64,000 nt of DNA. Source: an uncultured Bacillota bacterium. GTDB lineage: Bacteria; Bacillota; Clostridia; Christensenellales; UBA1242. The DNA lies in the NCBI GenBank assembly GCA_948465545.1, contig CAOJXO010000003.1:18936-82935 (forward strand), read 5' to 3'. The notes below the pieces were generated by a model that saw only the letters and a program-made list of their open reading frames with translations, had not been told where the DNA came from and searched no databases. The position numbers and the translations under genes were made by a program. Below are positions 20,470-55,760 of this stretch, one piece after another (the stretch's first letter is position 1; every line of letters begins with the position of its first letter).

Positions 20470-21168
20470 TTATCTAAGAAAATACTTATCCATGTAAAAT
20501 TTATTCCATGGCATAGCACTTGTATCAGGGCTTGCCACAAACACCATCTTTTGTTTGCTTACTGGGTGGATAAATTCAAGCCTGCCCGCCCAAAGCCCTA
20601 AGTTTTTGCTTGCACGGGTCTTGTCTTTTCCATATTTATTGTCACCAAGAAGCGGACAACCAATACCTGCAAATTGTACGCGAATCTGATGACTTCTGCC
20701 AGTCAAGATGTTAACCTCAACCAAACTTTCGGTGTCACTATTCTGTAACACTTTGTATGTTAATTCTGCCTTCTTAACCCCTTGCTCTGATTGAGGTACA
20801 ATTTTAACAATATTTTCTTTCTCATCTTTTTTAAGGTAGTTTACAAGACTGCCACTTTTAATTTGAGGCACTCCTTGGCATACAGCATAATAAGTCTTTT
20901 TCATCTCATGAGAAACAAGTTGTGCCGACAGCCTGCTTGCAGATTTAGAGTTTCTTGCGAAAACCATAATCCCCCCAGTAGGACGGTCAAGCCTGTGAAC
21001 AAGACCAATAAACGCCTCCCCTGGCTTGTTATATTTTTCTTTAACATAAGCCTTAACCATGCTGAGTAAATCCATATCCCCTGACTCATCTGCCTGCGAA
21101 GGGACATTCTGTGGCTTAACCACCACAATCACCTGATTATCTTCATATAAAACATTTAAATTTTCCAT
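20470..21168 (-). CDS. RluA-family pseudouridine synthase
   Basis: HRLDRPTGG catalytic motif plus GRSHQIRVQ. Confidence 0.85.
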   Translation of the reverse strand: MENLNVLYEDNQVIVVVKPQNVPSQADESGDMDLLSMVKAYVKEKYNKPGEAFIGLVHRLDRPTGGIMVFARNSKSASRLSAQLVSHEMKKTYYAVCQGVPQIKSGSLVNYLKKDEKENIVKIVPQSEQGVKKAELTYKVLQNSDTESLVEVNILTGRSHQIRVQFAGIGCPLLGDNKYGKDKTRASKNLGLWAGRLEFIHPVSKQKMVFVASPDTSAMPWNKFYMDKYFLR

Positions 21169-52591: not shown

Positions 52592-53242
52592 TTAATCCTC
52601 CTTTTTATTGACTATGACTTTCGCATATCTTATTACTTTATCTTTGTATTTATATCCTGCTTGGAATTCGTCCAAGATGATATCATTTTCTTTACTTTCA
52701 TCTTTCATAACCGCAATAACGTTGTGAAGATGTGGGCTATAAACCTGCCCGATAGACTCTATTTTTTCCACTCCAATTTCGGCAAGCGTAGAAAGGATTT
52801 TATTTTCAATCATTTCCACCCCTTGCAATACACTTTCATCAGAGATAGATTTCTTGGCTTCTTTAAATGTGTCAAGGCAAGGTAAAAACGCCTCTATTAC
52901 CGACACTTGCCCTACCATCTTAGCCCTGTCAATTTCCTCACGTGACCGACGTCTAAAATTGTCAAAATCCGCTTGAACCTGCTGAGCCAATGCTAAATAC
53001 CTGTCTTTTTCATCATGACAGGTGCAAACCTCTTCGTCATGACAGCCACATTCGCAATTTTCATCGCAATGACATTCGCCTTCGCAAGTGCATGGCTTTC
53101 CGTCTTGACAACCACAGGTGCAGTTCTCCCCACAGGTACATTTTTCGCCGTGCAAGCAACCGCAGTCATGATTTTCATCACAAGTGCACGCCTCCCCACA
53201 TGAGCATTTGTTCTTTTCTAATTCTTCGTTATTTTCAGTCAC
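52592..53242 (-). CDS. grpE: nucleotide exchange factor GrpE with a Cys-rich metallothionein-like N-terminal domain
   Basis: The C-terminal 140 aa are canonical GrpE (ADFDNFRRRSREE...FLPCLDTF...GYKYKDKVIRYAKVIV). Residues ~12-78 contain 20 Cys arranged in CxC motifs. Confidence 0.85.
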   Translation of the reverse strand: MTENNEELEKNKCSCGEACTCDENHDCGCLHGEKCTCGENCTCGCQDGKPCTCEGECHCDENCECGCHDEEVCTCHDEKDRYLALAQQVQADFDNFRRRSREEIDRAKMVGQVSVIEAFLPCLDTFKEAKKSISDESVLQGVEMIENKILSTLAEIGVEKIESIGQVYSPHLHNVIAVMKDESKENDIILDEFQAGYKYKDKVIRYAKVIVNKKED

Positions 53243-54244
53243 CTATTCATCTCCTTTCATTTCTCTAAGTTGGTCAATAACCACTTTAAGTGCTGAGGCT
53301 ATCCCCGAATAGTCCATTCGTTGAGGGCCAATAACACCGATTGAGGCTAACTGCCTGCCCTGAACTAATATCGGTGCTTTAACCACCGAACATTCACTTC
53401 CCTCTTCCTCAGCAACAGAAACTTCAATTTCACCTTTGCCAGAAAGGGTTAAAGATTCTTCCAACTTTTCCTTATCATCAAGCACTGAAAGCACTTTCTT
53501 TGCTTCTTCCACGCTTTTGCCGTTCTCAAGAAGTTTAACACTACCCTCACGGGAAACATTTATAAGTTTTTGAGAGTTGAGTTTTTTAAGCCCACCTATA
53601 AGCGAATCGACAATGCTTTGGAAAGCCTGAATTTCACCATTCATGCCCTCTTGAAGTTCTGTCATGTTTTCAATCATGAAACCAATGCTTGTGCCTTTAA
53701 AATTTTTTGTGAGATAGTTGGACGCATCTTGACATTCCTGCATACTTGCCGAAATATCCAGCGTGTTTGTAATGTATCCCGCCATAGTGCCAATAAGCAC
53801 CATCACCTTGTTTTCAAGAAGCGGAATGATTTTAAACTCATTTAAAAGCAAATTGTCAACTCCGTCAAGCATAACCACGGTAGGATAGTTCGTTGCATGA
53901 CTGACAATCTTTGCAATGCCAGAGATAATTTCGTTAAGGCTATTCGTCCTTGAAGAGATAAGTGCCCTTACATCTTCCAGTTCCTTATCAGTGGCTTTAA
54001 CCCCAGATAAAAGGTTTTCCACATAGAAGCGATAGCCTTGCACGGTTGGCACTCTGCCCCCAGAAGTATGAAGTTGTTTCAAAAACCCCATGGCCTCTAA
54101 GGCATTAAGTTCGTTGCGAAGGGTCGCAGTCGAACAATCCAGCCCTTTATCTTTTATGCCTCCACTTGTAATAGGTGCAGAATCTTTAATATATTCCTCC
54201 ACCGCCATACATAGGATTTGCTTTTTACGCTCTGATAGTTCCAT
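53243..54244 (-). CDS. hrcA: heat-inducible transcription repressor HrcA
   Basis: LSERKKQILCMAVEEYIKDSAPITSGGI winged-helix N-terminus. Operon position and a CIRCE element upstream. Confidence 0.9.
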   Translation of the reverse strand: MELSERKKQILCMAVEEYIKDSAPITSGGIKDKGLDCSTATLRNELNALEAMGFLKQLHTSGGRVPTVQGYRFYVENLLSGVKATDKELEDVRALISSRTNSLNEIISGIAKIVSHATNYPTVVMLDGVDNLLLNEFKIIPLLENKVMVLIGTMAGYITNTLDISASMQECQDASNYLTKNFKGTSIGFMIENMTELQEGMNGEIQAFQSIVDSLIGGLKKLNSQKLINVSREGSVKLLENGKSVEEAKKVLSVLDDKEKLEESLTLSGKGEIEVSVAEEEGSECSVVKAPILVQGRQLASIGVIGPQRMDYSGIASALKVVIDQLREMKGDE

Positions 54245-54267: not shown

Positions 54268-54294
54268 TTAGCACTCTTTAACTTTAAGTGCTAG
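54268..54294 (-). promoter_or_regulatory. CIRCE operator (HrcA binding site)
   Basis: Minus strand reads CTAGCACTT-N9-GAGTGCTAA, compared with the consensus TTAGCACTC-N9-GAGTGCTAA. It lies directly downstream of the -10 box. Confidence 0.8.
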
Positions 54295-54428: not shown

Positions 54429-55760
54429 TTATTCTTGCTCTTCACTATGGAAAGAGTGTCTATCCATATGAACACGATCCCCTTGTGGGAATTGTTGACG
54501 CTTAAACTTCTTAAGATCTGAAAGCGCAGCCTTTGTTTTTGATGAAGCAGCCCCTCTTGCTTCAGACAACGCTTTGATTTTTGCAAACTCTTCACGTTTT
54601 GCAGTAACAATCTTCTTATATTCTTCCATTATTAGGCGCATATCTTCGTCTATCTTAGCAATCCTATCGTTAGATTCTGCCTCTGCATAGTATTTATCGC
54701 TTTCACTTGCCATAAGTGATGTTATCACTTCAGCAATTATATTCATACTTTCGCTGTCTTTTTCAAATAAGGTTGCATCTAAAACCCCAAGCCTTTTCAC
54801 CTTATCTAATAAACATGCATCACCACTCATGCTTGCTTCAAGTTGTTCTTTAAAATTGGGCTCATTAGTTTCTTCACTAACTTCTTCGCTTACCATTTCT
54901 TCTTCATAGAACATTTCATCAAGAAGTTCTTCTTCAACTTTATGAATGTACGCCTTTGCATAATCATTACCATCAGAAACTTCTTCATTGAATGGCACTT
55001 GATAATATCCCCTTTCTGCAACAGCAAAGATTTCTTTATCTTTTCCATTTCCTTGTGGATTTACTGAAGTTGGAAGATTATCCCAGTTTACGATTTCAAG
55101 CACAAGTGGAACAAGTTTTGCATAAGCGGTATCCCCTGTTTCTACTTTAACCCCATCTATTGTTATTAGTTTGTTGTCTTTAGTTTTAGCAGTAAACTCA
55201 ACATACCTTTCACCATTTGAAATATATACAGGATTTTTGATCATTGTTTTGGCGTCAACATCATATCGACCTGAACATACCTTGTCTGTTTTTTCCAATT
55301 CCTTTGGTTTTGAAACAAGAGTCTGCGGTACTTGTAAGGAGAAAACTTTAATATAATGTTTTCCACCATTCTCAAAAATCTCTACTTTATGATTGCCAAC
55401 CCTAGCCTCCGAAGAGCCGTCTGCACGAGGTGCGGAGAGTTTAGATGGAAGATTGAGGTAAAGCGCAGGACGCACGGCGCGAGAATTGCTAACAGTAGTG
55501 TTGTATATCGACGCACCAAACGGAGTCAGAGAGTACGCAAACGAAGAAATGCCATAAAGGCCAGAACGCAGCCACGAATAGATATTACCATCTCTAAGCA
55601 ATTCACCATTTGCTACCGAATAACCAGAAGCCTTAGTTGCCTGTATTTGGATGGCTTGTATTTCTTCTCTGCTTAATGAGAAGAGGTTTGCTTTGCAGTT
55701 TTTTCCGATGTTGTTTTGGATTGTTTTTGTAATAACCAAATCTTTTAATTTGTTATTCAT
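54429..55760 (-). CDS. hypothetical protein with an N-terminal DUF6273-like module
   Basis: 443 aa. LFSLSREEI...YSWLRSGL...SNSRAVRPALYLN matches the WLRS...VRPAL pattern of DUF6273-type domains (from memory). The C-terminal half is acidic and coiled-coil. Confidence 0.45.
   Translation of the reverse strand: MNNKLKDLVITKTIQNNIGKNCKANLFSLSREEIQAIQIQATKASGYSVANGELLRDGNIYSWLRSGLYGISSFAYSLTPFGASIYNTTVSNSRAVRPALYLNLPSKLSAPRADGSSEARVGNHKVEIFENGGKHYIKVFSLQVPQTLVSKPKELEKTDKVCSGRYDVDAKTMIKNPVYISNGERYVEFTAKTKDNKLITIDGVKVETGDTAYAKLVPLVLEIVNWDNLPTSVNPQGNGKDKEIFAVAERGYYQVPFNEEVSDGNDYAKAYIHKVEEELLDEMFYEEEMVSEEVSEETNEPNFKEQLEASMSGDACLLDKVKRLGVLDATLFEKDSESMNIIAEVITSLMASESDKYYAEAESNDRIAKIDEDMRLIMEEYKKIVTAKREEFAKIKALSEARGAASSKTKAALSDLKKFKRQQFPQGDRVHMDRHSFHSEEQE

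Follow-up and report, generated by a model that had tools for sequence, protein, structure and literature searches.

The GrpE protein encoded in the DNA analysed here (a stretch of 64,000 nucleotides from an uncultured Bacillota bacterium, hereafter the window) bears, ahead of a canonical core, an N-terminal tail with 20 cysteines and a metallothionein-like composition. The CxCG[DE]xCxC module by which we traced such tails is not specific to GrpE, an observation that is new here: in related genomes it occurs on other proteins, and the GrpE is then usually Cys-poor, which argues, from the sequences compared, that the host protein is interchangeable. We propose, with a probability of roughly 0.55, that the module is a portable metallothionein-like tail on abundant proteins that would serve in buffering, sequestration or storage of cytosolic metal.

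The grpE gene and its cysteine-rich tail

The gene lies between hrcA and dnaK (Table 1). Its start codon adjoins the stop codon of hrcA, with GGAG, a good Shine-Dalgarno sequence, 8 nt 5' of the GTG, and dnaK begins 4 nt past the grpE stop. The CIRCE pattern was matched once, against 0.03 matches expected, and the hrcA-grpE-dnaK order together with this operator marks the product as the partner of the adjacent DnaK. It is the sole GrpE of the genome across the whole assembly (996,514 bp in 15 contigs, 35% G+C, 97% complete).

Table 1. Features of the grpE region, in window coordinates
Feature	Position	Strand	Basis or detail
dnaK, 607 aa	50765..52588	-	Pfam HSP70, E = 3e-252
grpE, 216 aa, GTG start	52592..53242	-	ORF list and sequence
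GrpE core (stalk helix from about residue 75, four-helix bundle, beta domain)	52592..53020	-	AF2 and alignments
Cys-rich metallothionein-like module, residues 13-75, 20 Cys	53018..53206	-	Sequence
hrcA, heat-shock repressor gene	53243..54244	-	Pfam HrcA and HrcA_DNA-bdg
CIRCE operator 5' of hrcA	54268..54294	+	TTAGCACTC-N9-AAGTGCTAG, 2 mismatches to the consensus
443-aa ORF upstream of the hrcA operon	54429..55760	-	No family evident from the sequence

Beyond the tail, the protein is a canonical GrpE, as the first-pass annotation had stated. The Pfam GrpE domain (PF01025) covers residues 68-213 with 114.9 bits against a cut-off of 25.8 (E = 3.8e-33). The best relative of solved structure is the GrpE of G. 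kaustophilus (4ANI, E = 1.4e-23, aligned from residue 81), and the alignments to 4ANI, 3A6M (T. thermophilus) and 1DKG (E. coli) begin at residues 79-88. The AF2 model of the core comprises helices at 75-132 and 136-156 and six C-terminal strands (pLDDT 84-95). The part of the stalk helix that is N-terminal to DxxNxRRR appears to be about 11-17 residues shorter than in E. coli. In comparison with these three canonical GrpEs, the core aligns and folds alike from residue 75-80 onward, and the gene is embedded in the same hrcA-grpE-dnaK operon with CIRCE; the difference is that the acidic, apparently disordered N-terminal tail of the window protein holds 20 Cys.

The sequence reported in the first-pass annotation for residues 12-78 or so, with 20 Cys in nine clusters, is matched exactly at 53209..53009 of the minus strand. 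The nine clusters are seven CxC and two CxCxC, separated by spacers of D, E, H, G, N and K; Cys accounts for 20 of 63 residues, Asp and Glu together for 30%, and aromatic residues are absent. Given the 1.4% Cys background of the ORFs of at least 200 aa in this genome, the binomial probability of 20 or more Cys in 63 residues is 6e-22. The tail has no Pfam or NCBIfam match at E <= 1, the metallothionein families (Metallothio_* and SmtA, PF02069) included. In the AF2 model, built from a 67-sequence alignment, residues 1-70 have pLDDT below 50 and no secondary structure next to the confidently predicted GrpE fold of the core; such predicted disorder is as expected for an apo-metallothionein.

A six-frame scan of the whole assembly revealed no comparable ORF save one of 99 aa on contig C7 (14383-14679, plus strand, outside the window). 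This ORF has an Asn/Tyr-rich N-terminal half and a basic, Cys-rich C-terminal end (NCCEQSKHECNCHRPKCNCNCNCHKEQRRCCCFKIFRCC); its chemistry, basic and with CC pairs, is unlike that of the acidic GrpE tail, and it could represent a small structural protein or one of spore-coat type.

Among relatives, the Cys span retains this character. Family-wide, it consists of 29% Cys, 17.5% Glu and 12.7% Asp, with Gly, Lys, His and Asn at about 7.5% each, aliphatic and aromatic residues below 1% and aromatic residues below 0.3%. The spacing between Cys is mostly CxC (i+2, 556 cases) and CxxxC (i+4, 286 cases), so that the repeat takes the form of a (CxC-xxx)n hexad, often CxCG[DE]x. This spacing, the Cys content and the predicted disorder bear out the metallothionein-like chemistry that had been read from the window sequence, at the level of composition. 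In the five closest orthologues, Cys is conserved at 75 of 80 positions (94%), compared with 90 of 218 (41%) for the other tail positions, and the alignment gaps drop entire CxC units. The proposed survey of orthologues likewise recovered the extension: in nearly all of the best 120 of 2110 GrpE homologues, 6-26 Cys precede the conserved 'YLxLAxQxQADFDNFRR' helix. At more than 130 loci, the frame is open and the Cys codons are conserved despite changes in length. Judged by this pattern of conservation, the Cys of the tail are under selection. A recent origin of the window tail by slippage was considered and rejected, since its DNA contains no clean repeat (Tandem Repeats Finder reports one weak 12-nt array, score 36).

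The idea that the Cys-rich segment is an artefact, namely a mis-called start or non-coding low-complexity DNA in front of a shorter GrpE, is extremely improbable. The single alternative in-frame start in the window gene is a TTG near residue 84, the one point in favour of this idea, but it falls within the region matched by Pfam GrpE. Among 80 orthologous loci, taken from genomes that represent species, the reading frame mostly opens right at the start codon; at least 12 of them (for example L003, L005, L009, L021-23, L034, L043, L044, L065, L073 and L077) lack any further ATG, GTG or TTG ahead of the GrpE core, so that the Cys region must be translated there. A start downstream of the Cys region, which the first-pass annotation had named as fatal to its reading, is excluded by these orthologues, and the open frame with conserved Cys codons at the more than 130 loci also speaks against an artefact. 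On the evidence of the reading frames, the Cys tail of the window GrpE is translated.

Distribution among relatives and exchange of carriers

The relatives of the source organism are Clostridia, all uncultured, from the gut of human, deer, rabbit, chicken and mouse; they go by the labels Christensenella-like, Catabacter-like or Candidatus Caccovivens, and their genomes measure about 0.8-1.4 Mb. Searching genomes for the tail by a BLAST-type method was too insensitive (matches in 9 of 151 family genomes, with misses within the same genus), and a DNA scan for the strict CxCG[DE]xCxC pattern, with the reversed pattern as control, was used instead. Of 301 genomes in the window's family, 81 contain the pattern, and these represent 32 of 58 genera; the reversed control is matched in about 5 genomes. 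Beyond the family, the class yielded matches in 18 of 245 genomes, mostly a single one in a 2-4-Mb genome and about at control level, and there were no matches in four genomes of the same order. Some matches within the scan are false: one locus (L087, G307:C7, about 20543-20617) is a microsatellite of the hexanucleotides TGTGGT/TGCGGC; one of its frames reads (CG)n, and it is probably either non-coding DNA or an artefact of Gly/Cys low complexity.

The strict motif undercounts Cys-rich GrpE tails. In a sample of 30 motif-negative family genomes, the GrpEs of which were located by phmmer, the tail has at least 6 Cys in all eight genomes of the window's genus and in 9 of 22 other genera. About half of the genera in this sample have neither the strict motif nor a Cys-rich GrpE, and the module is thus not indispensable.

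In a tree of 79 GrpE cores (67 Cys-rich, 12 Cys-poor), the Cys-poor proteins require 3-4 changes and are nested inside Cys-rich groups, which makes the tail ancestral on GrpE in this family, with 3-4 losses. In the Cys-poor relatives, the same position is occupied by a disordered tail of similar length, rich in Asp, Glu and Asn, next to the same short stalk helix, which indicates that the Cys are embedded in the usual GrpE N-terminal tail and that no helix has been replaced. The earlier statement that the module replaces the usual unstructured or helical N-terminus is therefore to be corrected as regards a helix. The number of Cys is highly variable: it ranges from 6 to 45 among GrpE tails and differs even on identical cores (16 versus 22 and 18 versus 25).

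His-rich variants are found at the same GrpE position, one with 22 His and 11 Cys (L202, G031) and another with 12 His and 9 Cys, including HYHHHHNHHHNHHPH (L173, G085). His-rich and Cys-rich tails thus appear to be interchangeable at this position, which hints at ligands of the Ni/Zn type. A second Cys-tail architecture is present in the GrpEs of one genus, g22 (L199 of G135, L196 of G203 and L218 of G021; 316-403 aa), where the N-terminus is composed of units of about 13 aa, 'LCDSDCDCGCVD', with hydrophobic spacers and up to 45 Cys, followed by an HHKHHHKHH run.

The module is by no means confined to GrpE. Carriers were catalogued from the sequence around 80 strict-motif matches in the 301 family genomes (about 1.4 kb to either side), with families assigned by Pfam, the sample thus being chosen by the motif; 43 of these loci have the module at the N-terminus of GrpE, 28 on other proteins, and 9 are spurious. 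It forms the C-terminus of trigger factor at 6 loci (genera g5 and g19), of a DUF1858/ScdA_N-like protein of about 110 aa at 11 loci (mainly g49), of an unassigned protein of about 190 aa at 2 loci and of an oxidoreductase similar to DapB/2,4-diaminopentanoate dehydrogenase (Ord-like) at one locus (g22). Another unassigned protein, of about 200 aa (5 loci in g35, the same protein as P0133), carries it at both ends. The remaining carriers, each at one locus, are KhpB/Jag, in which the module is in a linker (g55), a CobW/COG0523 GTPase (L164), in which it is embedded in the His-rich insert (g31), and the L151 protein, which has it near the N-terminus. In the g35 family (L129, L131, L133-L135 and P0133), which has no Pfam match, the core ENDLNVAIIKNNKDLLLNEDCCTCINIMLSNDGRILTSFLGCHNPYIVEQLEKAQ is flanked by the Cys module on both sides and there is a Lys-rich end.

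Where the module is on another protein, GrpE tends to lack it. Of 26 genomes whose module is on another protein, 23 have a GrpE tail with 0-5 Cys; in the other three (G085, G291 and G203) this tail has 9-20 Cys, so that the module is on two proteins. Compared with the motif-negative sample, where 17 of 30 GrpE tails are Cys-rich, this difference reaches significance when genomes are counted (Fisher p = 6e-4) and loses it on collapsing to genera (2/10 versus 10/23, p = 0.26); exclusivity is thus a strong tendency, clearly structured by phylogeny, and falls short of a proven rule. Among the genomes scanned for having a Cys-poor GrpE, six (L031, L035, L053, L056, L063 and L070), all of one Cys-poor clade, have the tail on the Ord-like oxidoreductase; the orthologue of this enzyme in the window genome (C4:43856-44995, 67% identical) ends ahead of the tail. 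The new elements of this work are the catalogue of carriers within one family, the move of the tail to the Ord-like enzyme in a clade whose GrpE has lost it, and the lack of HMA and CDF domains described below.

A search of the tail alone (80 aa) against a representative library of 1.84 billion proteins yielded 10 matches, few because of composition correction, and a word-based search limited to residues 1-80 yielded 5; the tail-alone search is informative on contexts and useless for distribution. Two of its matches (P0125 and P0128) are free peptides of 34-49 aa that consist of the module only, with no metal genes found beside P0125. Others are an ArsR/SmtB metalloregulator with the module as its C-terminal tail (P0130), a secreted repeat protein, and DUF4298 and DUF1904 proteins with C-terminal modules, one of which (P0129, Erysipelotrichaceae) scores 31 bits with Metallothio_5 against a cut-off of 25. 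The module is also present in GrpEs of other lineages (P0124, P0131 and P0132, with P0131 in its own hrcA-grpE-dnaK operon), that is, in at least two distant GrpE lineages. In another family of the class (L241, G452), a secreted subtilisin-like protease has CQCGDTCHCGDACECGDVC repeats in its pro-region or linker, and the module thus also occurs on an apparently extracytoplasmic protein.

Proposed metal buffering and the competing interpretations

We hypothesize that the N-terminal 75 residues would most likely bind soft or borderline metal ions, namely Zn(II), Cu(I), Cd(II) and possibly Ni or Co, through putative thiolate clusters with a partial contribution of His and carboxylate ligands. In this gut family with genomes of about 1 Mb, the module would be a portable appendage of one, occasionally two, abundant cytosolic carriers per genome, with GrpE as the commonest and ancestral one. 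Portability across carriers suggests that the main job is to buffer, sequester or store metal in the cytosol. On GrpE, the acidic disordered N-terminal tail would offer a permissive seat, and an effect on the DnaK cycle, if any, would be secondary. Control by CIRCE and HrcA could provide for induction: thiophilic metals would misfold proteins, the operon would be derepressed, and more tail would be made. Although metal binding itself is read from composition, the fusion to an ArsR/SmtB regulator and the placement inside the His-rich insert of a CobW GTPase point to metals as well, and the free peptides and the His-rich variants of the GrpE tail add to this context; against this, classical metallothioneins are far less acidic than the module.

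The metal hardware of the genome is consistent with such a role. Domain searches detected no HMA and no CDF (Cation_efflux) domain in this MAG, 97% complete, with the controls positive in 13-14 of 14 genomes. The two P-type ATPases have IPESMP and IPAGM where the CPC-type motif is expected and so are not P1B heavy-metal pumps, and the matches to CobW-like P-loop proteins are marginal only. With the commonest export and chaperone hardware for thiophilic metals seemingly lacking, a cytosolic thiolate buffer would make sense.

The first-pass annotation had suggested regulation, in which the module could couple nucleotide exchange on DnaK to metal or redox state. Under such a mechanism, the metal- or thiol-oxidation state of the tail would gate exchange or client release, by altering the short stalk in its conformation or its contacts within the dimer, or through a pseudo-substrate contact with the DnaK substrate-binding domain. 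The location is suitable: the tail ends where the helix begins, at residue 75, in the region of the GrpE N-tail and stalk end that faces the substrate-binding domain of DnaK in 1DKG and 4ANI, and GrpE stalks are known as thermosensors and mitochondrial Mge1 as an oxidation sensor. That the module is on GrpE in at least two distant lineages, and that trigger factor, a second carrier, is likewise a chaperone, adds to the case. Nevertheless, this coupling is weakened by the swapping of carriers, among them non-chaperones (the Ord-like dehydrogenase, DUF1858, KhpB and unassigned proteins) in genomes where GrpE is then Cys-poor; the variation in Cys number, on identical cores and overall, would be odd for a tuned switch, and the core and stalk are unchanged in Cys-poor relatives. 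We consider a regulatory role unlikely. Much the same applies to a metal-free function, in which the tail of these strict anaerobes with tiny genomes would be a thiol/redox buffer or sacrificial sink that scavenges oxygen, ROS, electrophiles or sulfide species or forms reversible disulfides. The very high thiol density would suit such a sink, as would the frequent association with the DUF1858/ScdA_N-like protein, a redox-disulfide-associated domain with its own CxxC, and the lack of any Hsp33-type motif in the window genome (ORFs of at least 200 aa). However, CxC/CxxxC spacing with Gly, Asp/Glu and His is typical of metal-thiolate clusters and not of redox CxxC motifs, His-rich substitutes occupy the same position, and the ArsR/SmtB and CobW contexts indicate metals, all of which makes a metal-free sink improbable. 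Fe-S cluster binding was also set aside as the main reading, as the CxC-xxx spacing and the His-rich substitutes would fit metal-thiolate binding better than a ferredoxin-type CxxCxxC site.

That GrpE and trigger factor are both chaperones, and that GrpE bears the module in distant lineages, hints at a chaperone-specific benefit. The tail could then act as a metallochaperone instead of a passive store and pass Zn (or Ni/Fe) on to clients that are folding or nascent, or strip mis-bound metal from clients of DnaK and trigger factor. The carriers GrpE, trigger factor and CobW/COG0523 GTPase would fit this function, for which the Ni-delivering tails of H. pylori HspA (GroES) and of SlyD are precedents (PMC8779794, PMC7840056). 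Given that non-chaperone carriers occur and that delivery and storage fit the present evidence equally, we regard it as quite unlikely on its own. Some of its elements enter a broader scheme that we entertain only tentatively, a 'distributed metallothionein' that hops among abundant carriers instead of a metallothionein gene with HMA/CDF proteins, works at the interface of chaperone and client and has CIRCE/HrcA as its metal-stress regulator. Over evolutionary time, the module would have left GrpE for trigger factor, DUF1858 or the Ord-like enzyme. Its preference for the two chaperones GrpE and trigger factor would have a functional basis, with the tail stripping mis-bound thiophilic metal from misfolded clients or metalating nascent chains.

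If the tail binds metal, as the buffering hypothesis requires, an uncultured but abundant gut family would handle Zn, Cu or Cd, or store a scarce metal, by means of a fused module in place of the textbook efflux pumps and metallochaperones. Its GrpE and trigger factor would be the first of their kind known to have a metal-binding domain (we found no paper on a Cys-rich or metallothionein-like version of either), and the principle of chaperones as metal carriers, typified by HspA and SlyD, would reach the Hsp70 system. The swapping of carriers is a natural experiment on the placement of a disordered, putatively metal-binding tail, and the tail offers a simple recombinant test system. For annotation, the module could serve to recognize tails that are now unannotated or called 'hypothetical'.

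Comparison with known systems

The switch of Hsp33 is a single defined Zn site, CxCx(27-32)CxxC, which governs the folding of the domain it belongs to. Like Hsp33 and Mge1, the protein described here is a component of a chaperone system, and in those two the chemistry of Cys (or Met) senses stress. The CxCx27-32CxxC pattern, however, occurs neither in the GrpE nor in any ORF of at least 200 aa of the window genome, and the tail is a long array of repeats, variable in length, that gives no sign of a switch; it is not a switch of the Hsp33 type, to which the first-pass annotation had drawn a loose analogy.

With metallothioneins (Metallothio_5 of Diptera, the CxC-type proteins of plants and fungi, SmtA/BmtA), the tail shares about 30% Cys, CxC and CxxxC spacing, hardly any aromatic or aliphatic residues and, as predicted, disorder without metal. 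By the compositional part of the operational definition of these proteins, its Cys content (about 15-35% is usual) in CxC, CxxC or CC arrangements and its lack of aromatic residues place it among them; on the other hand, it is not a free-standing protein of low molecular weight but is fused to a 141-aa GrpE core. It also differs from them in its strong acidity and in having no homology to SmtA. The His-rich stretches of COG0523/CobW, HypB and UreE are likewise low-complexity runs of metal ligands appended to or inserted in carriers, but those are tied to a dedicated metal-delivery enzyme, whereas the carriers here are mostly unrelated housekeeping proteins.

The closest functional parallels, beside these His-rich stretches, are HspA, a GroES with a His/Cys-rich, Ni-binding C-terminal extension, and the tail of SlyD, both of which serve in metal sequestration or delivery and not in folding as such (PMC8779794, PMC5116745, PMC7840056, PMC4671568). 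In both cases, as here, a terminal extension of low complexity that is rich in metal ligands is attached to a housekeeping co-chaperone and expression is under heat-shock control. The GrpE tail is, like theirs, a lineage-conserved low-complexity His/Cys tail on a chaperone terminus, and so are the trigger-factor versions. It differs in that it occupies the N-terminus of GrpE and not the C-terminus of GroES or SlyD, is dominated by Cys in (CxC-xxx)n form and not by His, and is far longer (63 aa with 20 Cys, and up to 45 Cys in relatives); finally, in contrast to HspA and SlyD, the module moves among carrier proteins within one bacterial family.
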